Below, in pieces: positions 1-37,190 of a DNA stretch of 37,488 bases. Source of the DNA: Thermoplasmata archaeon (GTDB taxonomy: Archaea > Thermoplasmatota > Thermoplasmata > RBG-16-68-12 > JAFNFQ01). Numbering within the stretch: position 1 is the first letter of the stretch; each line of letters begins with the position of its first letter. Location: positions 1 to 37,488 of the forward strand of contig JBGPQV010000024.1 of assembly GCA_041489255.1 (NCBI GenBank). Reading direction: 5' to 3'. The translations under genes and the position numbers were made by a program. The notes under the pieces are model-generated. The model saw only the letters and a program-made list of their open reading frames with translations. It made no database searches and was not told where the DNA came from.

Positions 1-3000
1 GAGGACGCCCTCGGTGAGAACTGGATCGCGTACACCCAGACGGTGAACCTCGGCGTCTCGTGGACCGGCCTCGTGCAAGTCGACGATGTCCCCGCGACCG
101 TGGCATATATGCCAAGTGGCGTGAGTATCATGCAGTCATCCGGTGTCCTCTACGTCGTCTGGTCCGACAACAGGAACGGCGACGGCGATGTCTTCGCCTC
201 CTGGTCCGAGGACAACGGCGCGACCTGGGGCGACGGAGCCCTCAACAACAACGATGTAAGGGGCGACGACACTGACGAGAACGCTCCGGGCGATGACAGC
301 ACCGACCAAGTGGCGCCTACAGCGATAGCAGGACCCGTTGGCATCTACGCGATATGGAGCGACAGGAGGAGTCCGCCGGCCTACCACGCGTACTTCGCGA
401 GTTTCGAGATAAGCGAGCTGATGATCACCGAGGTTCGCGACAGCCCCAACGGCTTGGAGCAAGTCGAGCTTTTCAACCATGGCGGGCGGACAATTGATAT
501 GACAGGCTGGCGACTGATCGTCGACGGCGTGACCGTTATCTTGACTCCGCTGGCCTCGTTTCCGGCAGGCGCGTACCGGACGGTCGGCGACCCTCCCGCC
601 TCCAATCTGGTAATTGACATCACTATCGGTGACGAGGGAGGCTATTTGCAGCTTCAGAACCCGAGCGCGGCCATCAAGGATTCGGTCTACTACGGTCAGC
701 TCGGACCAGCGCCGGATCCCTTGGACACGGAGTCGGTGGCGCGAGTGCCCTCGGGCGGCGGCTACACCTCGAACTGGGCGCGGGCAGCCATCCCGACGTT
801 CGGAGCGCCGAATGGCGGCATCGAACCGATTGTCAATCCCCCTCTCGTGCTCAACGAAGTGTTGTTCAACGCGGCGAACCCCAACAACCGCTTCATCGAG
901 CTCTATTTCAAGTCCCTCGGATCTCTCGGCATAGGAGGATATACTCTGGTCGGTGACGCAGCGTTCACCCTGCCTCCCGTGATCCTCTCGGCGGCGAACC
1001 CATTCTACGTAATCCGGCCTTCGCAGGCGCCTGCGCTGTTCAGTCAGATGACCGCCAGCGGGGACAACCTCTACCTCTACGAGCCGGGAGGCGCGCTCGT
1101 GGACATGGGCGGCTGGTCCTCTGCGCACAATCAGGACTTCAGCATGGTACGCGTTCCGGATGGATTCGGCACGGCGAACGGCTACGACGACCCGACCTCG
1201 ATTGCAGCGGGCTGGCGGTTCAACATGGCCCCATCGCTCCCGCTCGTCCTCATCGGCCCCAGGCAAACAAAAGGAGGGGACTTGGGCACACGCGTATTCT
1301 TCGTCCTGACCATCACGAACAAGGAGCCTGTCAATTCCTACGCGAACGTGCAGGTTCAACTCGGGCCGCAATCGTGGACCACCACCCTGTTCATGGCAGA
1401 CGGCATCACGCCTCTTGCCGACTCGCCCGGTGATCCCGATTCGATTCCGGACGCGGGACTTCTGGCTCCAGAGGCACAAATGAACATCCAGGTGGCTGTC
1501 GATGTGCCGCCGGTCCCGCAGGTCCAGGACTGGGAGTCCTGCAACATCGTCGCGACGATCGCCGGGGATCCGATGGCGAGCGCGAGCGTCCAGATCACAA
1601 CGAACATCTATCCCTATGAGTCACCAGCCGCATCGGTGAACCCCACGACGATATGGCTTGAGACTGCGCCGCCAGCCTACCTCCCCAAGGAAACAACGGT
1701 GACCCTGACCATCACGGGCCGCGGCACGGCGATGTTCAGACAGAGGCCGCAAGACACTGTGCTGATGATAGACAGTTCGGGGAGCATGACGACCAACGAT
1801 CCGACCAACCGCAGGCAGGCAGCCGCCAAGCATTACGTCGACCTCCTCGCGGTCCCTGACAGGGCGGCGGTGGTCGATTTCGACGAGGACGCGATCCTCG
1901 TCGGGAATCACCATCTGAGCTCGAACTATCCGCAAATCAAGACGGACATCGATACGATCAACAGTTTCGGCTCCACGAACCTCTACGATCCGATCAGGAT
2001 AACCGTGGACGAGCTAGTCGCATATGGCAACCAGTCGCACATATGGGTCGGGATAATGATGACCGACGGCGATGAGCAGCAGGGTCACACCGACGCACAG
2101 ATACTCGGGCAGGCTCAAAGGGCCGCCGACAACGGCATAGTCATCTTCACGGTCGGGCTCGTCGACTCCGGCGGCGGGATGAACGAACCCCTGCTCCAAC
2201 AGATAGCACAGATAACCGGCGGCGTCTACATGAGGGCCCAGACCGCGAGTGACCTTGACGCGATCTTCGCGCTGATAGGCCAGATAGTGAAGAACATGGC
2301 CGGTTACGACGATGATGTCACCGACAACATCCCGATGCTGAGCGTCCTTCTCCCCAACTACATCCATTACGTCGGGGCCACGGCGAATCCCGCGCCGAGT
2401 TATTCGGGTCTGATTAATGGGCAGATGAACCTGCAGTGGAACGTGTCGAAGCTGACGATAAACGAAACTTGGACCGCCACGTTCAGGGTCACATCGGGGA
2501 TGAGCGGTTCGGGCCTCGCTGGCCAGGTGCTCCCTGACAGCAGGGTCACGTACATGCGGTATGACGACACGCGCATCAGCATACCGTTCCCGCAGATCTA
2601 CATCGATGTCCTCGAACCGCCCCCGCCACCGCCGACGCCGGTGAACTGCACGATCTCCCGCAATCCGCTCATGGGAAACGTCACCGTGGACGGTTTCAAT
2701 TACACCGCTGGCACGATGTTCCCGTGGCTGTCCGGCCAGATCCACAACATCAGGGTTTGGGATCCGGACATGGTCGGGGGCGGCTCGCGGTGGGTCTTCG
2801 ATGAATGGGACGACGGCGGGGCCATCGCCCACGACATCACCATAGGCACATCCGACCGCACGATCACCGCCAACTACTCGCAGCAGCACCAGCCAATCGT
2901 GAACCTCCTCGGACTCGACAGCTTGCACGGAGTCGCCGCGCATTTCACCTCGAGAGGACTTCCCGTCGACCAGCCGGGATTGTCGGGCACGTGGTCCGAC

Positions 3001-4623
3001 TGGGTGGACAACGGCACCGCCTTATCATTCGACACCACCGGCGCGAACAGCAACGCGACCGAGAAATGGGTCACTCAGACAACGTTCAACATCGCCCCCT
3101 GGGACCCGGTGACCACGGCGTTCACGGGCAATGTCCGCTACTGGCACCAGGTCACACCCACCGTCATCATCCAAGGACTCCCGTTATTCTTGTACGTCCC
3201 CATCGCATACACGGTCTTCGGCTCCGTGAAGACTGCCGGCACCGCGACAGCCTGGACTGACTGGGTCGACTACGGCACGGCGGTCAGCGTGGGCGGCAGG
3301 GTGGATGTCCCGCCATCAACGAGGTACATCAACCTGATCTCAACGGGGGCGACGAGCCTCCAGTTCACGATGACCAGTGCGCGGACCATCGTGGTACCGT
3401 TCATGGCTCAATTCAAGCCGACGGTGTGCCTCATAGGGACGAATCCGGAGCACACTGTCGACGTCCGCTTCAACGACAGCACGGCAAGCCCTGTCCGCAG
3501 GGTCGCCATCAACGTCAGCGGCATCTGGACCGACTGGGCCGATGATGGTTCTTTCACCGTATTCTCGAGCAACACCAGTGGCATCCCGCCGCGGCGCGCG
3601 ATCAACGCCACGCAGCTCCTAGTCGATTCCGCGTTTTCAGCCTGCATCATCTACGAGCCGCCACCGCCGGTCAACCCGGAACCGAACTACAAGCCGCTGA
3701 TATCGCTGGCGTTCGTGGCTCTGCTACTGATCCTGGGCCTCTTCTGGGGTAACAGGAAGCCGTGGGACCGCCACATCCCAGACCCGCTGCAGCCGATGAA
3801 GCCCGAGGAGCTGGCGAAGCGGGAGGCGGAGCTCAGGAAGATGCCCATCGCCGAGAAATTCAAGGTCCTCAGCCTAGCTGAGCTGGAGGAGAAGTTCGCG
3901 CATGACAGGCACTGGACAATGACGACCCTCGCGATGCCATTCGCGGTGGTCGAGGGCATCATCGGTGTCGCGTCGCTGGCGACCGGCATCCTAAGGGTCC
4001 CCGATACCGGCAACTGGCTTTCTGCGGGGCTCATCGTGAACACGCTCCTGCTCTTGGCGGGAATAATCTACGACGCGTTCATGCAGAGCCGCGGTTACAG
4101 AGTCCCCAAAGAGGCGGACCTCGCAGCGCTTAAGGAGGAAAACCTTCCGTGGAAGGATGAGAAGCCTGCGCTCGGAAAGTCGAAGGAAACCAAAGGCGGG
4201 GCGAAGACCGAGACAATCCTTGGCACATTCTCTGGGATGGAGGGTCAGATTGGCGGCTTCGGAATCCCCCGGCTCTTCGATATGGTATTCACCGACAAGA
4301 GGCTGGTTTGCATCGTTCGCGCGACTATCGGGATGAGCCTCGAGGGCGCGGTGGTGACATTAATCAGAGAGTCCAAAATCAAATCCAAGCCCACTGAGTA
4401 CATGGCGGATGACCTCGACCGGATGTTGAGCGAGAAGAGGGGGAACTTCGAGCTGCCATATGACTCGATCGAGAAGCTGACGTTGAGTGGGATTCTGGGG
4501 AAAACCCTCAAGATCAAGGCACCGAAGAGACCAGTGAAAGAACTGTACGTCCATGTGCCCAAGGCCGACTTGCCCGAGATGACCAAGACGCTCAAAGAGG
4601 CGGTCCCTAAGTTCGAACCTTAA
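1..4623 (+). CDS. Large cell-surface protein, 5'-partial: Asp-box/BNR remnant, 2 lamin-tail domains, Ig-like domain, vWA domain, beta-sandwich repeats, 3 TM helices, C-terminal PH-like cytoplasmic domain
   Basis: Frame is open from base 1. Motifs: Asp-box SEDNGATW; LTD starts LMITEV..EQVELFN and LVLNEVLFN..FIELY; vWA MIDAS DSSGS (1771-1785) with GSTN and MTDG; Pro-rich linkers; hydrophobic segments after NYKP (about 3685-4075); charged tail. Confidence 0.85.
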   Translation, partial: EDALGENWIAYTQTVNLGVSWTGLVQVDDVPATVAYMPSGVSIMQSSGVLYVVWSDNRNGDGDVFASWSEDNGATWGDGALNNNDVRGDDTDENAPGDDSTDQVAPTAIAGPVGIYAIWSDRRSPPAYHAYFASFEISELMITEVRDSPNGLEQVELFNHGGRTIDMTGWRLIVDGVTVILTPLASFPAGAYRTVGDPPASNLVIDITIGDEGGYLQLQNPSAAIKDSVYYGQLGPAPDPLDTESVARVPSGGGYTSNWARAAIPTFGAPNGGIEPIVNPPLVLNEVLFNAANPNNRFIELYFKSLGSLGIGGYTLVGDAAFTLPPVILSAANPFYVIRPSQAPALFSQMTASGDNLYLYEPGGALVDMGGWSSAHNQDFSMVRVPDGFGTANGYDDPTSIAAGWRFNMAPSLPLVLIGPRQTKGGDLGTRVFFVLTITNKEPVNSYANVQVQLGPQSWTTTLFMADGITPLADSPGDPDSIPDAGLLAPEAQMNIQVAVDVPPVPQVQDWESCNIVATIAGDPMASASVQITTNIYPYESPAASVNPTTIWLETAPPAYLPKETTVTLTITGRGTAMFRQRPQDTVLMIDSSGSMTTNDPTNRRQAAAKHYVDLLAVPDRAAVVDFDEDAILVGNHHLSSNYPQIKTDIDTINSFGSTNLYDPIRITVDELVAYGNQSHIWVGIMMTDGDEQQGHTDAQILGQAQRAADNGIVIFTVGLVDSGGGMNEPLLQQIAQITGGVYMRAQTASDLDAIFALIGQIVKNMAGYDDDVTDNIPMLSVLLPNYIHYVGATANPAPSYSGLINGQMNLQWNVSKLTINETWTATFRVTSGMSGSGLAGQVLPDSRVTYMRYDDTRISIPFPQIYIDVLEPPPPPPTPVNCTISRNPLMGNVTVDGFNYTAGTMFPWLSGQIHNIRVWDPDMVGGGSRWVFDEWDDGGAIAHDITIGTSDRTITANYSQQHQPIVNLLGLDSLHGVAAHFTSRGLPVDQPGLSGTWSDWVDNGTALSFDTTGANSNATEKWVTQTTFNIAPWDPVTTAFTGNVRYWHQVTPTVIIQGLPLFLYVPIAYTVFGSVKTAGTATAWTDWVDYGTAVSVGGRVDVPPSTRYINLISTGATSLQFTMTSARTIVVPFMAQFKPTVCLIGTNPEHTVDVRFNDSTASPVRRVAINVSGIWTDWADDGSFTVFSSNTSGIPPRRAINATQLLVDSAFSACIIYEPPPPVNPEPNYKPLISLAFVALLLILGLFWGNRKPWDRHIPDPLQPMKPEELAKREAELRKMPIAEKFKVLSLAELEEKFAHDRHWTMTTLAMPFAVVEGIIGVASLATGILRVPDTGNWLSAGLIVNTLLLLAGIIYDAFMQSRGYRVPKEADLAALKEENLPWKDEKPALGKSKETKGGAKTETILGTFSGMEGQIGGFGIPRLFDMVFTDKRLVCIVRATIGMSLEGAVVTLIRESKIKSKPTEYMADDLDRMLSEKRGNFELPYDSIEKLTLSGILGKTLKIKAPKRPVKELYVHVPKADLPEMTKTLKEAVPKFEP

Positions 4624-4671: not shown

Positions 4672-7600
4672 CTATACTTGGCGCTTGCGTGTGAGCTTTC
4701 CGCGTCGCATCACCAGAATGGACAGCAGCATAATGACCGTTGGCAATAAGGCGTCGGAGAACTCCGGAATCGGCGTGAGTATGTACACCCTGCCGTCCTT
4801 CGTCGAGCCGTCCCACCACGGGCAGCCCATCGCTGCCTCCGCATAGTAGACTGAGACTAGGTCTCCTGCCGCGATCGACCAGCCGCGCCTTTCGTTCAAT
4901 TCTCCGTCCGAGCTGAACCTCCAGCGGATGCTCGAGGTGGGCCCGTAGTGCCAGTAGACTGCGCCCATGTTGCTGTTGTTGGCAGGCGCGCCGACCATGA
5001 GGTCATCGTATGTGTCGCCGTTGACGTTCCCAGTGGCGAGGGACCATCCGAACTTGCCGTTCGTTGTGAACGGGCCATAGAGCTTCTTGGTCGGCGTGCT
5101 GATCGTGCCGCCGTATGCGGTTGCGCGAATGGTCGCCCCAGAGTAGATGTAGGCCGCACCCGTGTCGTTCGTGTCGCTGTAGAAGGGTGCGCCGACCACC
5201 GCATCGTCTAGGTAGGATGAGTCCCCATCGAGGTCGCCCGTCTCGACCGCATGTCCGAAGCGTTCGGTGTTCACTTGGCCGGCGAGGGTGACGTTGGCGA
5301 ATTGCTGTCCCCTCAGGGCGAGGTAAACCCAGACATAGTCCCAGTCGACTGCTTGCGATCCTCCGGGGTCGTAGCTCCGGAAATACGCCTGGACGGCACC
5401 CGCCCTGGCCCTGGTGTTCATACCGAGAGAGTAGACGTTGTACCAGCCGTAAACGCCGTTTCCGCTGCTTGGCGTGATGTTGGTGTTCGCCCACCCGATC
5501 CCGGTGGTTTTCCACATCAGGCTACTATTCCCGCCGTACGTGGCGACCACAGAGTATTGGACTCGAATCCAGGCGCTGACTATCGATCCATATGAGGTCA
5601 TGCCTCCGATGTACGTCTGGTCGAACCACATCACGCTTCCCTTGTCAACTTGATAGAAACCATCCTGGGCAACGCCGCCATTCGGGGGGCTACCGTCGTT
5701 CGCGTTGTCGGTTTGAGCGTCGACGAGGAAATCGGTGGTCGTGTCGCCAGCGTTCTTCCGGCTCACGTAGGCGGTGTAATAGAAATCCGTGTCCGGATCC
5801 CTGAAGCAGTTGCCCCAGTTGCTGCACCCGTAGTAGATGTAGCCCGCTCCCTTGCTGGAGCTATTCGTCGGTGCGCCGACGAGGATATCCTCGTAGCTGT
5901 CCAAGTTGAAATCACCGATTGCCAAAGACGAACCGAACGCCTCCGTGTCCCCGCGATAGAGCTTGACGCTTGGGGTGGAAACCAGCGAGGCGAGCGATGT
6001 CGAGCCGAAGTAGATGTAAGCGCGTCCTTTCCCGGTGCCGTTCTGCGGCGCCCCGACGACTATGTCCTTGAGCGCCTTTCCACCCGAGGAATCTCCGTTG
6101 ACGTTGCCTGAGGCGACATCCCAACCGAACATCTCCCCCGCGGACTGGCCCGCGATGTCCACGTCCACGACCGTGTTCATCGTGCTGCCGCCGTAGAAGA
6201 CGTACGCCCTGCCTATGTCGGTGCCGCCCTCGTCGTTGTAAGGCGCGCCGATGATCGCATCGTCATAGCCGTCGGCGTTGACGTCGCCCACGGAGACGTT
6301 CCAGCCGAACATCTCTCCCGTGTATTGGCCGGGCAGCATCAGGTCGGGGCCGTAGTGGCCGTCGAGGAACGGCTTCCCGAAGTAGACGAATGCCGCGCCA
6401 GTGTTCGCCGTACCGCCATAGGCGTTGGCGGGCGCACCCGCGAGCACGTCGAGCTTGCCATCCCCGTTGAAATCACCGGTCGTCACGGAATAACCGAGCA
6501 TCTCCGCGGTCGTACTACCAGGGTCCCTGCTGAGTATCTGCACGTCCGGCGTCGTGTCGAATGTCCCCGGGTTCTCGCCGTTGAAGACGTAGACCTTCCC
6601 GCTGTTCGTGCTGTCCACGACATCGAAGTCGATAGCGCCCACGATCAGTTCCCCGAAGGTGCTGTTGCTGTTCACGTCTCCGATAGCGAGCGCATACCCG
6701 AAGTGATCGTAGTCGTTGTCTCCATTCCTAGAGACGAATGAACCTGAAGTCCCATTCCAGAAGAGGTCGAACCTGCCGTGCTCAATCGGAGCGATGCCCT
6801 CTCTGTAGAGCTGCGCGCCGACCGCCACCTCCGGCAGGCCGGTCGAGCCGATTTTGCCCTTGGCCAGAGCCATCCCGAAGTATGTGAAGGTGGCTGGCGA
6901 CGGCAGAGAAGCGTCCGTGCCCCCGTTCATGCTCGAACCGCCGTAGAAGATGCTGACCCTCCCGTTGTAGTTTGGAAAGCCGTAGTAGGGGCCGCCCGCG
7001 TACAAGTCCTCGTAACCGTCCCCGTCGAAATTTCCCGACGTGACCGATGTCCCGAGCTCCTCGTTGCTGTCTCCATTATTGCAGTTCACGTCCTGCGTCG
7101 TGTCCATGTTGGCCCCGCCGAAGAATATTCCCACCCTTCCGTCCGCCGGGTGGCCTGGACCGGCTACCATATACTCCGGGGCTCCGACCGCCGCTTCGTC
7201 GTAGCCGTCACCGTTGAAATTCCCAACGCCGACGGCGTACCCGAACTGCTCGCCGCCGTTCGCCCCATGGAGTGTCTTGTCAGAGTCGGTGTCGAAGGTT
7301 GACCCGCCGAAGTAGATGTATGCGCTACCCACATTCCCGCCGCCCGTGTCGTTCAACGGAGCGCCGACAATCAGGTCCTTGTAAGAGTCGCCGTTGAAGT
7401 TGCCAACCGCAAGGGAGTAGCCGAATTTCTCTACTGCCTGCTTGGAGACCAGCATGGCGTCGATGACGGAGTCGAGCGTCGAGGCGCCGAAGTTTATGTA
7501 GACGCGGCCGTCGCCGCTGTTGTAGTCGGGCGCGCCCACTATCATGTCGGAGTAGCCGTCGTTGTTCAGGTCGCCCGCGGCAACGGACCATCCGAAGTGA

Positions 7601-10600
7601 CCGCCAGGCGATGGGCCGGGAATCTCCAGGTCCACGACGGTGTCCATGGTCGCACCACCGAAGTAGACGTATGCCCTGCCGCTCCCCGAACCGCCGAGGT
7701 TGTTGTATGGTGCACCCACAAGCAGGTCGGCCTTGCCGTCCCCGTTGAAGTCCCCCGTGGCGAGCGAGTATCCGAAATTCTCGCCCCTGTAGCCGTTCAT
7801 CAGTATCGTGGGATCGATGGTCACCGGATACCTCGCCGAAGAAAGCCAATCCGCCGGACACCCTATCCTCAGATCAGATTGTTCGACCCTGTCGACGAGC
7901 GAGTAAGCGCATTGGATTCTCGAGCCGCCCGTGTCGACTGCATACGGGGCTGCCAAGGTGAACGCGGGGACTTGGCCGATATGGAACACCAGTTCGCCTG
8001 ATGTGGTGAACCTGTACGCGCTGCCGGAACCCTCCGGCGACCATGAGCCGATGCTTCCCGCCAACTCCGGCGAAACCCCGCCGAGGTACGCGACTGCGAA
8101 TTCGAAGGCGAGCGTGTCAGGACCGCCAATGAGGAATGAAGGCGGGCTCGAGAGGATGATTTCCTCCTTGAGCCTGTCTGCATCAAAGGAATATCCGACC
8201 GAGATGTCCATGGCGGGAGTCTCGTAGGAGAGCCCGAACCCCGAGGTCACCAGCGAGAACGGTCCGACCGGGTAAGAACCCAGCTCGCTCTGCCCGTGGA
8301 TCATCTTCGCGCCGGTCAGCCGCCACTGCAGGCCGAATCCCTGCAAATCGCGGAAAATGACGTCGCCGTCGGACATGCTCTCCGGGAACGTCACCGTGTA
8401 GAGATCGCGCTCGATCGACAGGCCGCCATCCGCCGATTTCGTCATCGACCTCGTCCCGGCGGGGGACGTATCGTCGTAGTTTCCGCGCCAGTCCCTCAGG
8501 TCGAACACGACAGACACGTTCGCCGTTGGCGGGAGCCCTGCGATGTCGATCTGCGCCTCCAGCTCGGAGCCGCCCGCCGCGAGGGAAGCCTGACCCACTT
8601 CGGCCCACTGCCACGTGAATGGTGTGGCGCCCGTGAACCGCCACTGCTTCTGGCTCATGGCACGACCGTTCTTTCCAGTGATTTCCACCATGCGGTCGGC
8701 GTACACGCCCTTCACCCAATATCCGGAGTTGGGCACGCCGTCCGTGTCCACGAATACGCGGAGCTTGTCCTCGCCGAGCTCTGGCGGCGGGATCACCGCG
8801 GGCCCTATGTAACGTGAGACAAGGCGCCCGGCGTAGGGAGGTACGTACCAATCCGGGATGGTGGTGTTCAGCCACTTGTCCTGGCCCCACGGCCAGTCCT
8901 GGACGCCGTCGCCGTCCAGGTCGTGGTTGGTCATCGCGTCGGAGACGTTGTCGTTGTTGAAGTCGAATGGGAGGATGCTGTTGATCGCCGCCTCGACGGA
9001 ATCGGGAACAGAGTCCATGTCGGAGTCCAGGGCCGGCGGGGCCTGTTGGCGGCCAGGTAGCTGGACAGCCGCGGAGATGCCCTTCATGATCTTGCCGTCC
9101 ACGCGGGCATAGAAGGAGACGAGCGAACCGTCTCTGTGCGCGTCGTAACCCCTGAGGTCCACGGACTTCGCGCCCTTCGTCGACTGCTCGCCGGCGGCAT
9201 CCGGGTTCGCGCCGGTCCATTCGGAGAAGGCGCCGTCGATGACGACGCCGGTCGGGATGGAACCGAGGTAGCTCATCTCTCTTGCCGATTGCCCTTGGAA
9301 TACGGAAACGGACGCACCTGGAGCAACTATCGAGTTCGCGTCGGCCAGCCAGAGGCCGAGGGTCGCGCCGTCGGAGGCGGTGACAGTCGCCTCGATCGTC
9401 ACGTTCTTCCGGCCACTGTCAATCACGAGGGGAGTGGCGAATGTCATCTGTCCGGTGCCGCCGCCATAGGTGAACGAGCCGAGCACACTCCCCAATCCGT
9501 CTCGCGCGGTGAATGTGGAGATATCTCCGGCCGCCGCTGTCCCGCGCACCTGGAGATCCACGCCCTGGACGGAGACCGCTCCGCCCGCTGACCTGAAGCT
9601 GAGTTCGAGCAGGCTCACTGTCCCCGGGCTTGAGGCCTGCGGAGCGACACTCGTCTGCATGACCTCCAAGCTCGGCCTGGTCGAGGACAGAGCGAAATCG
9701 GAGTAGTCCTCCTGGTTGTTCCAGCCCGCGGCGTGCAGGAGTACCCTGCCGCCGGCGAGGTATGCCGCGTCGCCCGTCGACCCGCCAGGGATGTCCACCA
9801 TCGCCTCCATCTTCCCCGAGTCCGTGCCCGTGCCCGGCACCGCGCTGACTGCCCATCCGTTCTCCCAGTTTGACCAGTCGTTGCCGCTCTGAGACGACCT
9901 CTGGGACCAGGCCAGGAGGCCCGACCTGAGGACGGTGTGCCCCTGTCCGAACACCTGCACCAGGTAGTCGGCGCCAATCCCTTCCACGAAATAGCCGGTG
10001 TTGGCGTCGCTGTCAGCGTCGATGTATGCCTCGAAGATGTCCGACGACAGGCCAGACGGGTCGCCTGTGAGGATCGTCCCAGCCACTTCAAAGTAGACGC
10101 CCAATCTCCCGTCCTCGGACTTGACGCTCCCTCCGACGAGATCCAAAGAAGCATCAATAGACGTGTCGCGGTCGAGGCCGATGGCGCCCGACCATTCGCC
10201 GAAGGACCCGTCCGGATCCAAGAAGAGGGCCTCCTTGAACAGCGCCCCCGGCATCATCACGGGGGCCATGAGGAGAATCGCCGCGATCATCGGAACTATG
10301 AATAGCTTCCATCGGGAGTACTCGGCCTGTTTCTGGAACCTCTTGGATCCGAGTCCGTTGGTGAACCCGCTGCCGTTGGTCAGGCCGTTGGTCATGCCCG
10401 TGCGCGCCTTCCTGAGCCCGTTCACCAGGCCGTTCGTCCGGCCGGTCCCGTTGACCTTCCCATTTGTGCGGCCGAGGCCGTTCACGAGCCCCGTCCCCCG
10501 CTTCAGGCCGTTGGTCAGTCCGTTCGTCAGGCCGTTCGTGCGGCCCGGCGCCTTGGGAACCTTCCTCGGTACCGCCCTTGATCGCGCCAGAGCCTTGAGG

Positions 10601-17455: not shown

Positions 17456-18229
17456 CTATGCCACCACCCTGGTCCCGATGAACCTCTTCCCCTTGATCGC
17501 GTCGCTGAGACGGCCGGGGACGAGGCCGTTCAGGATCCAGAATTCGTCGCCGGACTCCATGACCTTGAACATCTTCCTCAGCTTCCCCTCGATCCCCCCG
17601 GTGACGTCCTTCCCCGCGCGGACGGACAGGTTCAACCTGCCCATGTCCCCGATCCTGACCTCGCGCAACAGCTCGCGCCTCCCCTTCTTCTTCGGATCGC
17701 TCGTGAAGACGCCGTCCACATCGGTCACGAGGATTGTCTTGCTCGCCGGAAAGTAGCCATGGAGAAGCCCGATCAGGTCGTCGCCCGAGCAGATCCCGAA
17801 CCTCCTCTCCGAGTCGAAGACGACGTCGCCGAACGTCACGGGGGTCATCCTGAGGCCGAGGCACTGGATGAAAGGCCTGGTCTCGATGTCGTGCAGCCTG
17901 CCATCGGCGAACCTCACGACGAGGCTCGGCGGTATCGGCATGGGGTTCAGGCCAGCCCCCAGCAGGGCATCGTCCACCATGAGGTTCAGTCGCCTGACGT
18001 CCCTTTGGACCTCACTCACTCCGCGCAGTTGAGACTCATCGCGGTACCCTTCGTGCAATCTGTATCTCTTGGCGAGGATGTGACCGAACGAGCCTGCGCC
18101 GTGCACGAGGATGATCTGCTCCTTCGTTGCAGACACCTCCCCCGCCAGGCGTTTCAGAACGGATGGGCGGGCGGTCCTCAGTCTCGACTTGTCCGTGATC
18201 ACGCTCCCGCCAAGTTTCACCAGAAGCAT
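17456..18229 (-). CDS. ipk: Isopentenyl phosphate kinase
   Basis: LVKLGGSVITDK, VHGAGSFGH (IPK His), SGDD, DVDGV, DVTGG; clustered with fni and idsA. ATG 18229 lies about 30 nt after TATAAATA (minus strand, 18258-18265). Confidence 0.93.
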   Translation of the reverse strand: MLLVKLGGSVITDKSRLRTARPSVLKRLAGEVSATKEQIILVHGAGSFGHILAKRYRLHEGYRDESQLRGVSEVQRDVRRLNLMVDDALLGAGLNPMPIPPSLVVRFADGRLHDIETRPFIQCLGLRMTPVTFGDVVFDSERRFGICSGDDLIGLLHGYFPASKTILVTDVDGVFTSDPKKKGRRELLREVRIGDMGRLNLSVRAGKDVTGGIEGKLRKMFKVMESGDEFWILNGLVPGRLSDAIKGKRFIGTRVVA

Positions 18230-18318
18230 GCTTCTCGGCGGCAAAGCTGGGGCGCTCTATTTATAGATTCTCGGCAAGCGAGCGGCATCCTCCATGTCAA
18301 GACTCGACCCGAACTTTT

Positions 18319-18560
18319 TCTCAGCCCGAATGGATGGTGTTCCAGCCTGAACGGTGCTCATTCCACGCGGAATGGTGGTCTTCCAGCTGAGAAGGCAGCT
18401 ATTCCAGCCGGAATGGTGTCTGTTCAGCCCGGAATGGCTGTTGTTCTAGGCGGAACGGCGAGTATTCAAGTCGTGATGGGTTTGTTCCACGTGGAAGGTG
18501 GTCGCTCCCTCGTGAACGGTCCCTGTTCCGGCCGGAATGGTGTCCATTCCACGTGGAATC
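18319..18560. repeat. Tandem array of about 12 degenerate palindromic units (TTC-N6-GAA-YGG) with 20-21 bp period
   Basis: 12-bp cores start at 18319, 18340, 18361, 18382, 18402, 18423, 18444, 18465, 18485, 18505, 18526 and 18547, e.g. TTCCACGCGGAA, TTCCAGCCGGAA, TTCCACGTGGAA (twice), TTCCGGCCGGAA. Confidence 0.85.
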
Positions 18561-18718
18561 ATATTCATTCTGAAACGACCCGACAGCGGGACTTGACCGC
18601 CGAAAGGATGGCAATTCCCTCGGAAACGGAACGGCCGGGACCGCGCGGCCAAGCCAAGATACTCATTGCGAGGATTCTTAAGACAGTCCATCTCTTGACT
18701 CATCGTTCGAGTGATTGC

Positions 18719-20164
18719 ATGAAGACTTCGAGCATCCTCGTCTCACTACTGCTCGTCGTGTTGTTCGCGATACCTTCAACGGCGTCAGCGGGTGCCGCGT
18801 CCGCCTCGGCGGTCCAGCCACAAACCCCCGCCCCCAAACCCTCGATCCTCGCAATCGTGCCCACCCCCGTGCCCCCTGGCATGCTCAACGTGCCTGGCCA
18901 GGACATACGCGTGACCTACAGCGACAAAGACCAGAACGAGGTCACTGTGGCAATCAATCCCTTGAACCCCGCCAACATCATCGAGGGCGCGAACGACTAC
19001 AGGGGCTGGGATGGCACTGGCGCGGCTGGTTCGTGGTGCGGCATCTATACTTCATTCGATAGTGGCGGGCACTGGAACATGGGTCTCGTTCCACATTCAG
19101 GGGCCCTCAGCTGGAGCAGCTCGGCGGGGGATCCGAGCGCGGCATTCGACCTCATGGGCAACGCGTACTTCACATGCCTGGGATTCGTCCGCGCGGGTCC
19201 CTTCATCACCAACAACACCATAGCGGTCACGAAGAGCACGGACGGGGGAATGACGTGGCTTCCTCCGGTGAACGTCGTCTCCACCGCCAGCACGCCGCCG
19301 TTTCACGACAAACCTTACATGGCGGTGGACACCTCCATCGGCAGTCCCCACAAGAACAACATCTACGTGAGCTGGACCAACTTCTCCAGCCTCTCCGGCG
19401 GTGCGAGCCCCATCTATTTCTCCAGGAGCGTGAACGGAGGCGCCAGCTTCTCAACGCCGATGAAAATCAGTGGCACGCAGTCGTACTGTCAAGGCTCGCA
19501 GCCCTCCGTCGGGCCTGCTGGCGAAGTCTACGTCTCATTCATCAGCTACTCAGGCTCTCAGAGCAGGCTCTACGTGACCAGGTCCGACGATGGCGGTGTT
19601 ACTTTCAACACGCCCGTCTTTGTGTCCAATGTCGTCGACCCGGGGGATTTGCCGGAATACTACAGGACGCCAACGATCCCGAGCAGCGCCACGGACCACT
19701 CATCGGGCCAGTTCAGCGGCTCGATCTACGTCGTCTGGCAGGATGGGAGAAATGGCCATTCAGACATCTTCGTCTCCTATTCGCGCGACAGGGGAGTGAC
19801 GTGGTCCGCCGCGAAGAAGGTGAACGATGACGCGACTACGAATGCGCAGTTCTTCCCATTCGTCTCGGTCGCCCCGACCGGCCGCGTCGACGTTGTGTTC
19901 TATGACCGGAGGCTGGATCCGAACGATATCCTGCTGGACGTCTACGCCGGCGTTTCGTCTAATGGCGGGGCCACCTTCAAGAATCGCCGCATCACCGATA
20001 GGCCGATTGTCGCAAGGTCGGGCCAGCCCTTCATCGGGGACTACATCGGTGTCGCTTCTCTCGACTGGTCTTTCTATCCGGGGTGGTGTGGTTTCGTCGG
20101 CTCGGACGAGGAGATCTTCACGGAGCAGTCGCCAATCCTCCACATAGTCCTCGTCCCGCGATGA
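18719..20164 (+). CDS. Secreted BNR/Asp-box beta-propeller protein (sialidase-like fold, function unknown)
   Basis: Signal peptide MKTSSILVSLLLVVLFAIPSTASA; QNE..AINP.NP; Asp-boxes SFDSGGHW, STDGGMTW, SVNGGASF, SDDGGVTF, SRDRGVTW, SSNGGATF; C-terminal FIGDY. True start lies inside the 17144..20164 ORF. Confidence 0.88.
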   Translation: MKTSSILVSLLLVVLFAIPSTASAGAASASAVQPQTPAPKPSILAIVPTPVPPGMLNVPGQDIRVTYSDKDQNEVTVAINPLNPANIIEGANDYRGWDGTGAAGSWCGIYTSFDSGGHWNMGLVPHSGALSWSSSAGDPSAAFDLMGNAYFTCLGFVRAGPFITNNTIAVTKSTDGGMTWLPPVNVVSTASTPPFHDKPYMAVDTSIGSPHKNNIYVSWTNFSSLSGGASPIYFSRSVNGGASFSTPMKISGTQSYCQGSQPSVGPAGEVYVSFISYSGSQSRLYVTRSDDGGVTFNTPVFVSNVVDPGDLPEYYRTPTIPSSATDHSSGQFSGSIYVVWQDGRNGHSDIFVSYSRDRGVTWSAAKKVNDDATTNAQFFPFVSVAPTGRVDVVFYDRRLDPNDILLDVYAGVSSNGGATFKNRRITDRPIVARSGQPFIGDYIGVASLDWSFYPGWCGFVGSDEEIFTEQSPILHIVLVPR

Positions 20165-20306
20165 CCTGATTCCATCGCTGAGCCCGCGCAGTCCGTGGCG
20201 GCATGTCCAAGCCCGGATTGAAATGTGGCTGCGAATGCGCAAGGGTTAATAATTAGGCATACCTAACGTTGAGCATCCGCCAACCTAATGAACGGGAGTA
20301 GATAAC

Positions 20307-21428
20307 ATGGAAACAAGACTGAAGTCACCTTTGATAGCGATTCTATTGGTGAGCATGCTTGTGGGAACCGTAGCAGTGGCCGCCGTGCCCGGAGTGCGCG
20401 CCGCCTCCGTGAGCCTCAATTTGTATGGAACCATGATGGGGGGCTGGGGAACGTCGCCGGGTTCCGAGACGATACCCGGACCGCAGATATCCGTGAACAA
20501 GGACGATGTGGTCACTCTGACATTGCACTCGGAGGACGGGATACCCCATAAGTTCCTTCTGGACTACAATGGTAACCTCATCGCCGACGCCGGCGAGCCT
20601 GTTTCGCCAGTATTCACTGGCACGACGACAATCACCTTCACAGCTTCTCTGGCTGGCACATTCAACTACATTTGCACGATACACCCGGGCACAATGCACG
20701 GCACGTGGAAGACAGTGGCGCCTCCACCACCGACGGTCCACGATCTCGCGGTAACTAGTGTCTCCGCATCTCCTCTGACGGTCATCAAGGGAGCAACAGT
20801 CCAGATCACAGTCACAGTAAAGAACCTCGGGACAGTCAGCGAGACCTCCACCGTCCAGGCATTCACGGGAGCGAGCCTTGTGGGCAACCAGAGCGTGAGC
20901 CTCGGAGTCGGTGCGACCGCCAACGCAGTGTTTTCATGGAACACGACGCCCGTGACGCCGGGCACATACCTGACCAGCGGCAAGATCATCCAGGTGACGG
21001 GGGAGAACAACACCGCCAACAACCAGATGAACGACGGGACTGTCACGGTGAACCCGCTTCCGCCCGGAAACCTGAAGGCGGAGCTTGTTGGCCACAGCGC
21101 ATGGCCCGACTTCCACCACCTGGCAATCCATAGCAGGAGTAGCACTCAGACGCTCTATGGCAAGGTCGCGAACGTCGGACCCGGACCTGTCGCCGCCAAG
21201 GTTGTCTTCCAGATATTCGACGCCAACACCGGGATCTTGAAGGCAACTATAGAGTCGAACGTGGCGACCATACCCGTGGGCGGCATCGTGGTCGTTTCAG
21301 GCGCATGGACAGCGGTCGTCGGCTCATACTCCGTCAGGGGGCAGTGTTGGTTCGACACGAACAACGACGGCATATTCGACGGGAGCGACCCGGGCGTGAA
21401 GATTTTCTCGTTCAAGGTAGTCCCGTGA
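20307..21428 (+). CDS. Secreted cupredoxin (type-1 copper) domain protein with CARDB/Ig-like domains
   Basis: Signal peptide; PH..YICTIHPGTM supplies His/Cys/His/Met ligands; PPPP linker; HDLAVTSV..V.VKNLG..NTANN CARDB pattern. Confidence 0.85.
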   Translation: METRLKSPLIAILLVSMLVGTVAVAAVPGVRAASVSLNLYGTMMGGWGTSPGSETIPGPQISVNKDDVVTLTLHSEDGIPHKFLLDYNGNLIADAGEPVSPVFTGTTTITFTASLAGTFNYICTIHPGTMHGTWKTVAPPPPTVHDLAVTSVSASPLTVIKGATVQITVTVKNLGTVSETSTVQAFTGASLVGNQSVSLGVGATANAVFSWNTTPVTPGTYLTSGKIIQVTGENNTANNQMNDGTVTVNPLPPGNLKAELVGHSAWPDFHHLAIHSRSSTQTLYGKVANVGPGPVAAKVVFQIFDANTGILKATIESNVATIPVGGIVVVSGAWTAVVGSYSVRGQCWFDTNNDGIFDGSDPGVKIFSFKVVP

Positions 21429-33077: not shown

Positions 33078-33151
33078 GCCCGAGTGGGGTAGCACGGATA
33101 TCCTAACAGGTTGCGGACCTGTTGACCCGGGTTCGAATCCCGGCTCGGGCG
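33078..33151 (+). tRNA. tRNA-Arg(GCG), intronless, CCA not encoded
   Basis: Acceptor GCCCGAG/CTCGGGC, anticodon stem ACAGG/CCTGT with loop TTGCGGA, T arm CCGGG-TTCGAAT-CCCGG; AATTAAA box about 25 nt upstream. Confidence 0.95.
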
Positions 33152-36470: not shown

Positions 36471-37190
36471 TCACGGCTTGGTCACGGTATTGGCGTCTAG
36501 TGTAACCGCGCCAATCCGTGCCATCGCCCTGCCTTGCAGCGTTGCGCCGTTGTTCAGCGAGACGGACTGATCCGCCATGATCGTTCCGATGAAGGTCGAG
36601 TTCGTTCCGAGAGTCGCGGAAGTGCCGACCTGCCAGAAGACGTTGGAAGCCCTCGCGTTGCCAATCAGAATCACGTGGAGGTTGGCTGCCGTGTCGAGGG
36701 TGGACGCCATCTGGAAGATGAATACCGCGTTCCCGTTGCCCTGGGCGTCCAGGGTTAGATCCCCGGAGGATATCTGAAGACCGGACGTGGACTTGTAGAG
36801 ACCAGGCGTGAGGGTTTGTCCTCCAAGGTTTCCGGCCACGCTCACGGGACACAGGGTTCGTCCAGCGGCATCGTTGTACGCGGTGGTCAAGTCAGCAATG
36901 GCCCCGGCAGCAACCGTATCGGTTATATGACTCGTCCCGACCACTGTTCCGGGCGGGAATCCGGTCACCGCGCTGCCTGGAAACACGCCGAGATCCCCGT
37001 TGACCGTGGTCGGACCGGTGTTGGTCACCGTCGCGCCCGCCAGGACGGCGAAATTGGCGGCCGTTCCGAGGGCTACTGCGCTTTGGCTGCATGCGGATTG
37101 CGACTTGGTCAGCAAGATGTAGCCTGCCCCAAGTACCACCGCCACGAGGGCAATCGCGACGATCGCAACGACCATTTTCTTTCGAACCAT
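36471..37190 (-). CDS. Ice-binding-like protein (DUF3494), N-terminal membrane anchor
   Basis: LGTAANFAVLAG..VTNTG.T.V.GDLGV.PG, AYNDAAGR, LGGQTLTPGLY, FIFQ, NVFWQVG.SATLG, VTLDANTVTKP; AGGTGAT SD. Confidence 0.92.
   Translation of the reverse strand: MVRKKMVVAIVAIALVAVVLGAGYILLTKSQSACSQSAVALGTAANFAVLAGATVTNTGPTTVNGDLGVFPGSAVTGFPPGTVVGTSHITDTVAAGAIADLTTAYNDAAGRTLCPVSVAGNLGGQTLTPGLYKSTSGLQISSGDLTLDAQGNGNAVFIFQMASTLDTAANLHVILIGNARASNVFWQVGTSATLGTNSTFIGTIMADQSVSLNNGATLQGRAMARIGAVTLDANTVTKP

Follow-up and report, generated by a model that had tools for sequence, protein, structure and literature searches.

What is a row of a dozen phased palindromes for, set between two divergent genes of a sediment archaeon? 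The window, a stretch of 37,488 nucleotides from a Thermoplasmata archaeon (GenBank assembly GCA_041489255.1, contig JBGPQV010000024.1), carries such a row between an isoprenoid operon and two genes for secreted proteins. A first-pass annotation, made from the letters of the window, took it for a cooperative protein-loading platform (centromere-like, chromatin-organising or iteron-like), with a multi-hairpin RNA or a decayed heptad-repeat gene as alternatives. What that annotation missed is that the array is a gene-less member of a family dispersed through the genome.

Structure and setting of the array

The array occupies positions 18319-18570 (unstranded) and consists, by sequence reading and pattern scan, of 12 units of 20-21 bp, which start at 18319, 18340, 18361, 18381, 18402, 18423, 18444, 18465, 18485, 18505, 18526 and 18547. 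Its consensus is TTC(C)-N4/6-(G)GAA-Y-GG with a variable linker of ~6 bp (~6-9 bp over the array). Eight of the 12 cores match TTC-N6-GAA exactly and four have at least one mismatch; units 4, 8 and 10 are degenerate. The number of cores, their span of 228 bp start to start and the mean period of 20.7 bp agree with the first-pass annotation, as do the three perfect 12-bp palindromes, TTCCACGTGGAA at 18485 and 18547 and TTCCGGCCGGAA at 18526. We read the spacings as 21,21,20,21,21,21,21,20,20,21,21; the annotated series holds in all but one step, the placement of the first 20-bp step, where the two readings differ because unit 4 is degenerate. Two weaker sites of the same type, TTGACCGCCGAA at 18593 and TTCCCTCGGAA at 18615 (18593-18625, unstranded), were also noted correctly and have one mismatch each. 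They lie outside the stretch that is homologous to a second genome of the genus (G001), where the alignment decays after ~18577. Tandem Repeats Finder reports periods of 21 and 41 at the array. Exact TTC-N6-GAA occurs 804 times in the 2,740,437 bases of the whole assembly (0.29 per kb), and the window array is the sole cluster in this 2.74-Mb genome (G000) of at least four exact hits spaced no more than 45 bp.

Gene calls and domain matches bear out the annotated position in a divergent gap. The array fills most of the 489 bp between a gene on the minus strand (17456-18229) and one on the plus strand (18719-20164). The former encodes a protein of the amino-acid-kinase family, isopentenyl phosphate kinase-like (IPK; PF00696, E 6.9e-34); it starts 90 bp to the left of the array and heads the isoprenoid operon, with IDI2-like and polyprenyl synthase genes next. 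A TATA-box-like hexamer read from the sequence, TTTATA (18261-18266, unstranded), lies ~32 bp upstream of the kinase start codon and 55 bp from the array, and is probably the promoter of the isoprenoid operon. On the other side, 149 bp to the right of the array, starts the gene for a secreted BNR/sialidase-like protein (18719-20164, plus strand; BNR_2, E 1.4e-8) with the signal peptide MKTSSILVSLLLVVLFAIPSTASA, preceded by a TTAAGA-type TATA-like element ~100 bp from the array. It is followed by a gene for a secreted CARDB/cupredoxin-like protein (20331-21428, plus strand, alternative start 20307; CARDB, E 3.9e-5). The window also encodes giant surface-type proteins, one of 1526 aa with LTD and VWA domains (43-4623) and one of 2296 aa with at least nine FG-GAP repeats (4672-11562); proteins of 700-1800 aa are found near many other 21-bp arrays of the genome as well. 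At 36471-37175 this sediment archaeon encodes a protein with an ice-binding-like domain (PF11999, E 1e-65).

Contigs from 4/4 other sediment metagenomes carry the array intact, with zero indels. The only difference among them is 18365 A>G, seen in 3/4, which converts unit 3 from TTCCACGCGGAA to the perfect palindrome TTCCGCGCGGAA. The strains compared are only ~1% diverged, and they show stability of the array rather than selection upon it.

A period of 21 bp is also seven codons, and one plus-strand frame is open through the array, within a stop-free frame of 1006 codons in GC-rich DNA. A coding heptad repeat, decayed or real, is nevertheless effectively refuted. The 20-bp steps shift the frame, and do so at different units in G000 and G001; a gene caller based on codon usage finds no coding sequence in the gap; the BNR gene proper starts at 18719 with its signal peptide; and the DNA words are conserved in both orientations. 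Thus the annotation was right that this is not a maintained coding repeat, and the heptad-repeat gene that it kept as an alternative can be dropped. It was also right about CRISPR: the whole period is 21 bp with linkers of ~6-9 bp, too short beside the repeats of 24-48 bp and unique spacers of similar length in CRISPR arrays.

The homologous array in a sister genome

Comparison with G001 shows both the loss of this array and the survival of a relative. Around the window array the two genomes are 97.5% identical up to 18290, a region that includes TTTATA and is retained in G001, and the identity resumes at 21368 (blastn). The 3,077 bp between them (18291-21367, unstranded), which hold the array, the BNR gene and most of the CARDB/cupredoxin-like gene, are absent from G001. 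Since the last 60 nt of the CARDB-like gene are kept there, as a remnant beside IPK (locus L004), the segment was deleted in G001, and the array is therefore dispensable. A homologous array with 71% identity lies on another G001 contig (C22), among genes unrelated to those that flank the window array, and blastn homology between the two covers window positions 18316-18577 only. The arrays are collinear unit for unit over 12 units, with units 4 and 8 degenerate in both; the G001 spacings are 21,21,21,20,21,21,21,20,21,21,21. The G001 array is found 255 bp downstream of a gene for a 126-aa protein, which we call gene A, with a terminator-like hairpin and T-run between them. The window array is thus an orphan copy, of which the complete module form survives in G001, and it marks the turnover of genome islands, being lost at this locus in G001 and present there elsewhere as a complete homologous module. 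In the rest of the order we found no TTC/GAA array, by blastn (2/41 genomes) or by a three-unit pattern (2/79), the positive genomes being G000 and G001.

The two arrays also show what has been conserved. Positions T1 T2 C3 G10 A11 A12 G14 of the unit are identical between G000 and G001 in 73/84 cells, compared with 104/180 cells (58%) for the other positions (Fisher p = 1.3e-6). The YGG that was said to follow GAA is borne out over the 24 units of both arrays, with T or C at position 13 in 21/24, G14 in 20/24 and G15 in 16/24. Of the 24 units, 9 have complementary bases at inner pair 4-9, 10 at 5-8 and 12 at 6-7, where column shuffles predict 11.6, 10.2 and 8.9. Because the inner positions pair no more than the shuffles do, the perfect palindromes are by-products, and the conserved object is a pair of inverted words of 3-4 bp. 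Conservation of the words only, with no covariation, speaks for recognition at the level of double-stranded DNA rather than of an RNA hairpin.

The position of the array in a divergent promoter gap, 55 bp and ~100 bp from TATA-like elements, would suit an ordinary operator array, through which a transcription factor of the host regulates the flanking isoprenoid operon or the secreted-protein genes. We consider this very unlikely. Outside the array, 11/89 copies of TTCC-N4-GGAA are non-coding (12%) vs. a non-coding fraction of 14%; the motif is thus not enriched in non-coding DNA and behaves much like control palindromes, so that no regulon is evident. The homologous array in G001 stands beside unrelated genes, and in genome G039, where a BNR homologue also lies next to IPK, no 21-bp array is present. 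Furthermore, arrays of this kind follow gene A regardless of the orientation of the next gene, as described below. In G039 (locus L018, ~700-1360) the gap between IPK and BNR holds, as read by eye, an AbrB/SpoVT-like and PIN-like pair of the VapBC type.

Arrays of 21-bp period and their linkage to gene A

We scanned the whole genome for similar arrays by Tandem Repeats Finder and autocorrelation. At an autocorrelation of at least 0.6, there were 23 non-coding regions at lag 21 and 22 at lag 42; at the same cut-off lag 11 gave 6 regions and lag 22 gave 3, and lags 19, 20 and 23 gave none. Period 21 is therefore special in this genome. The 23 lag-21 regions merge into 19 distinct non-coding arrays, all of which lie in unusually long gene-free gaps (430-1400 bp); a super-period of 42 bp is seen in many arrays of this class. 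They differ in their words, with families built on CCAGAC-N4-GTCTGG, AACATGTTGCGGG, CAGCG-N7-CGCTG, GGACGGAGTCCGTCC, GCACAG...AATGC and TTC/GAA, the last represented in this genome by the window array alone. A word and its reverse complement in each unit, with free linkers, are common to the TTC/GAA and CCAGAC/GTCTGG arrays and to the bacterial GGTCAG/CTGACC and TTACC/GGTAA arrays; in several sister families, among them AACATGTT and GGACGGAGTCCGTCC, the palindrome is contiguous and has no loop. Two of the arrays in G000, C3:52427-52891 and C9:69890-70206, are homologous and in opposite orientation, and each is split by a common unique central piece with a GCGCGTATATGCGCG-type palindrome and a TATA-like centre. 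We dropped the idea that terminal inverted repeats bound the two TTC/GAA arrays, as palindromic units set in a row make the ends look alike in any case.

The arrays are linked to gene A. An array lies no more than 700 bp downstream of 11/19 gene-A genes or fragments, vs. 10/2305 other genes (Fisher p = 1e-19). In G000 the array is always 3' of its linked gene A, at 50-600 bp in complete modules, and this order holds whatever the orientation of the next gene. The annotation had proposed a scan of the genome and its relatives for further arrays beside ParB/SegB, SMC or Orc1/Cdc6 genes; the arrays were indeed there, 19 of them, but the neighbour of 11 was gene A, and none of the proteins named stood beside any of them. 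Six of the 19 arrays, the window array included, are orphans with no gene A, and two more are at contig ends. A six-frame profile search found no gene-A remnant within 1.5 kb of these six and two arrays at E up to 10, and no gene-A member within 1.5 kb of the window array in any of the six frames.

Gene A encodes a family of small helical proteins of ~105-140 aa (114-138 aa in this genome, with the conserved motif AV.KDS..AKNFRR[IL]RS), and its profile has 14 matches in G000, of which 12 are full-length. The closest G000 counterpart of the 126-aa protein of G001 reaches 43% identity among 12 aligned paralogues. Searches of Pfam, NCBIfam and PADLOC gave no family for gene A, and its look-alikes in the ESM Atlas are all 'hypothetical'; the family comprises ~330 clusters among 1.84 billion representatives, with 'hypothetical' as every source name seen. 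An AlphaFold2 model of gene A is all-helical (mean pLDDT 86), with a central helix of 57 residues and a short basic C-terminal helix. Foldseek against the PDB returned nothing with E below 2, and VIA-align reached at best Z 6.9, a value typical of generic helical matches; neither search found a recognisable DNA-binding fold. As a homodimer, gene A is predicted with a score of 0.72, compared with 0.00 for the best control. Among solved proteins, 20/30 pairs of one chain attained that mark and 1/23 single chains did, counts that hold only roughly here, as the prediction used its own alignment. The dimer runs agreed in at least 87% of contacts, with a partner pLDDT of at least 82, and the modelled contacts, at i+j ~118, indicate an antiparallel dimer. 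A helix of 57 residues would measure ~85 Å, comparable with ~71 Å for 21 bp of B-DNA, and the two lengths may be commensurate.

In 7/12 full-length modules a second gene, gene B (127-157 aa), is directly upstream of gene A. Its matches to the PadR, MarR and HTH_Crp_2 winged-helix models reach the thresholds or fall just short of them. Complete modules have an 11-bp tandem repeat between gene B and gene A, possibly an operator. These repeats run to 3-6 copies, 45-140 bp upstream of gene A, with a unit that differs per locus; examples in G000 are C9:71005-71067, C36:8800-8840, C2:254422-254462, C3:109710-109768 and C15:32037-32076. Orphan 11-bp arrays with the identical unit TGGTACGAGCG occur in G000 at C1:235914-236002 and C13:1609-1723 (locus L024), and the one on C1, upstream of a Zn-alcohol-dehydrogenase gene, is at the site that in G001 holds gene A and the TTC/GAA array.

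A transcribed element has to be weighed here, whether a multi-hairpin small RNA or a promoter/terminator array like the BrickBuilt repeats, with gene A as an RNA-binding protein. The archaeal gene-A proteins have in common an arginine-rich motif, RR[IL]RS.I.R, as well as an arginine-rich C-terminal helix, and bidirectional promoters are described for BrickBuilt repeats in the portion of the report cited here (PMC4596501). Folded as RNA, the window array gives z = -4.4 (plus) and -6.1 (minus) against shuffles. Such values are expected of any row of palindromes, however, and Rfam at the gathering threshold, over the whole window, finds only a tRNA at 33078-33151 and nothing at the array. It is the sequence of the words that is conserved and not their pairing, and the inner stem positions do not covary. 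The palindromes of the sister families leave no loop, the words have a two-fold symmetry that RNA does not need, and in G001 the terminator-like hairpin with its T-run stands between gene A and the array. We therefore regard a transcribed element as quite unlikely, and the multi-hairpin RNA offered by the annotation is weakened, although the strongly negative folding scores remain.

A proposed platform of phased binding sites

The reading that we favour, with modest confidence, is that the array is a non-coding platform of double-stranded DNA with phased candidate sites for protein binding, and a gene-less copy of a module made of gene A and an array. In each 21-bp unit the TTC and GAA words are inverted, and successive words would be about one helical turn apart (9 and 12 bp). 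Successive units would be two turns apart and so present their sites on the same face of the helix. In the complete module an all-helical gene A, a predicted antiparallel dimer, comes first and the array second. The likeliest binder would be a protein of the gene-A family, or a partner recruited by gene A, that loads cooperatively along the array; the complex might anchor DNA or handle it in a partition-like way, silence or insulate locally, or titrate the protein. Here we infer that protein binds at all, as well as the identity of that protein and the task of the complex. What stands of the platform that was first proposed is thus a non-coding array, in which only the words are conserved and which is linked to a protein family; its named analogies fail, as set out below.

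Gene A, gene B where present or another protein may read the words. A rod-like gene-A dimer with its basic C-terminal helices far apart is not obviously suited to half-sites 9 bp apart, and a winged-helix dimer such as that of gene B would fit them better. Gene B is absent from the TTC/GAA module of G001, however, and reading by eye found none among the upstream ORFs of six metagenome loci. As G000 has no close cognate gene A, either a paralogue serves the window copy in trans or the copy is a relic in slow decay.

The second of these options, that the module class is functional but the window copy has lost its gene A, has no role now and persists through slow decay, seems to us unlikely, though a good deal speaks for it. 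No gene A or remnant is found within 1.5 kb of the array, no aligned gene-A paralogue of G000 exceeds 43% identity to the G001 protein, three units (4, 8 and 10) are degenerate, and G001 has deleted the whole segment. The window array is also not alone, since 6/19 arrays of the genome are likewise orphan and two more abut contig ends. On the other hand, TTC and GAA are intact in most units, and the words match G001 in 73/84 cells when other positions match in 58%. Some of this conservation could be due to the G001 lineage only. Across 4/4 metagenomes a single SNP is the sole change to the array, but the strains are only ~1% diverged.

The platform can also be seen in a wider frame. In a two-part system shared by Archaea and Bacteria, an antiparallel gene-A dimer would polymerise on its own phased palindrome array of 21/42 bp into a defined nucleoprotein body, and orphan arrays would serve as additional sites in trans for the network of paralogues. 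The 19 arrays and 14 gene-A matches (12 of them full-length) would then make up a scaffold for chromosome anchoring or silencing, concentrated in islands of surface-protein genes. We put this forward tentatively, as a possibility that we doubt; if true, it would be a new kind of chromatin element in prokaryotes, made of a protein and a satellite.

Comparison with known systems

Phased arrays of binding sites are a hallmark of centromeres, origins and silencers. With plasmid and phage iterons (of the R6K, RK2, F and P1 types), the ~20-bp direct repeats phased at two helical turns that are bound by a Rep initiator, the platform would share its repeat length, its two-turn phasing and presumably its cooperative binding. 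In contrast to iterons, its unit is palindromic rather than asymmetric and there is no adjacent rep gene. No initiator gene is found beside the array; the Cdc6_C matches in the genome are only C5:138200 and C1:251884, and neither of these two Orc1/Cdc6 genes shares the contig of the window array or lies near another array. A marked AT-rich unwinding element is missing too, as GC is 0.53-0.60 across the array, with a minimum of 0.46 at 18650-18749. Membership among the iterons of replication origins is thus rejected for lack of an initiator gene and an AT-rich element, and with it the iteron-like reading of the first-pass annotation.

Two archaeal systems, AspA-ParB-ParA of the Sulfolobus plasmid pNOB8 and SegAB of the Sulfolobales, use a site-specific or small winged-helix protein that attaches to palindromic sites and spreads from them. 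Gene B is similar in that it encodes a small winged-helix protein of PadR/MarR-like type. Unlike in those systems, however, no ParA/SegA ATPase is linked, the sites form long phased arrays, and gene B is present in only 7/12 G000 modules and missing from the TTC/GAA module of G001.

The centromere sopC of plasmid F is built of 12 direct 43-bp repeats, and SopB binds a 16-bp inverted repeat within each of them (in the portion of PMC3177203 cited here). The array resembles this type Ia partition site in its ~12 tandem direct repeats with a short inverted repeat in each and, in complete modules, in lying downstream of the gene of the presumed binder; the 42-bp super-period of many arrays of the class is a further likeness. 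It differs in that no ParA/SopA ATPase and no ParB-family protein is beside any array of the genome, that there are 19 arrays and not one per replicon, and that the linked protein belongs to an unrelated small helical family. A domain search found no parA-parB or segAB operon linked to an array. Two CbiA/ParA matches, C6:110154 and C2:69565, exceed the cut-off, and each is either separated from every array by tens of kb or on a contig that has no array; of three weaker matches one is a RadB-like gene in the window (11929-12186), ~6 kb from the array. No SMC gene is beside the window array or any other array. We therefore reject membership among ParABS/sopC-type centromeres, despite the tandem build with inverted repeats, for want of a linked partition operon; nor does the earlier centromere-like reading survive 19 arrays per genome with no ParA, ParB or SMC gene beside the array.

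As far as analogy goes, the closest published dispersed element is BrickBuilt of Porphyromonas gingivalis, a 23-nt minisatellite/MITE with 19 copies per genome and promoter activity (Klein et al., 2015; PMC4596501, here and below in the portion cited). Both are dispersed and strictly intergenic, with a period near two turns and imperfect units that combine conserved and non-conserved positions, and both count 19 copies per genome, often beside genes related to the surface or to secretion. BrickBuilt, however, is described as one family of sequence whose copies have a leader and a tail segment in common as well as terminal inverted repeats, which the arrays here are not: their unit differs by family, and the homology of the TTC/GAA arrays ends at the array ends. 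The arrays are, moreover, linked to a protein gene, a link that the cited portion does not report for BrickBuilt. We reject a MITE of this type, as homology is confined to 18316-18577 and the TTC/GAA unit is at one locus per genome.

The module in other archaea and in bacteria

The gene-A profile has matches in 5/301 genomes of the class, namely G000 and G001, with 14 matches apiece, and three members of a single further genus (g6). Downstream of gene A in G001, lag 21 or 42 is the top lag at 9/10 loci, two of them weak (0.48); at the tenth, only 15 nt follow the gene. For genus g6, 5/9 loci have their top lag at 20, 21 or 41-43, and by eye two arrays are clear, two weak and one absent.

The same geometry is found in bacteria. 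Relatives of Draconibacterium protein P0173 were recovered from Bacteroidota and from the cable bacterium 'Ca. Electronema', and lags 21 and 42 are the top two downstream of the gene at 14/14 of these loci and at none of their upstream controls. The bacterial units are GGTCAG-N9-CTGACC (12 units), CAACC-N3-GGTTG and TTACC-N4-GGTAA. Bacterial and archaeal gene-A proteins are homologous (hhalign probability 97.6%, E 4e-12, 103 columns). Thus Thermoplasmata-type archaea, Bacteroidota and a cable bacterium all keep the geometry of 21 bp, with inverted words once per turn, and vary freely in the words themselves, a pattern that points to an unstudied protein-DNA machine with two helical turns as its ruler and a protein family that the databases do not name. 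Our literature search found nothing relevant on such arrays or on the gene-A family, and Subirana and Messeguer (2019), in the portion drawn on here, survey prokaryotic satellites in general terms; the module of gene A and array is best read as undescribed but widespread. Sunxiuqinia dokdonensis DH1, Draconibacterium aestuarii Z1-6 and Carboxylicivirga linearis FB218 are cultured carriers, which makes the system directly testable.

In JGI metagenome contigs, whose gene-A subfamily is only 26-34% identical, the array is downstream at 7/14 loci (5 distinct) and upstream at 4. In L085-L087, six perfect 21-bp copies followed by degenerate ones (~1560-1690) lie upstream of a distant gene-A relative, a sign that the array may have expanded recently and that its placement varies. 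At L077, L080 and L082 the position of gene B, upstream of gene A, is taken by a different small conserved ORF (starting MALAESFLDLLTRN...), and L077 has a second gene-A-like ORF in tandem.
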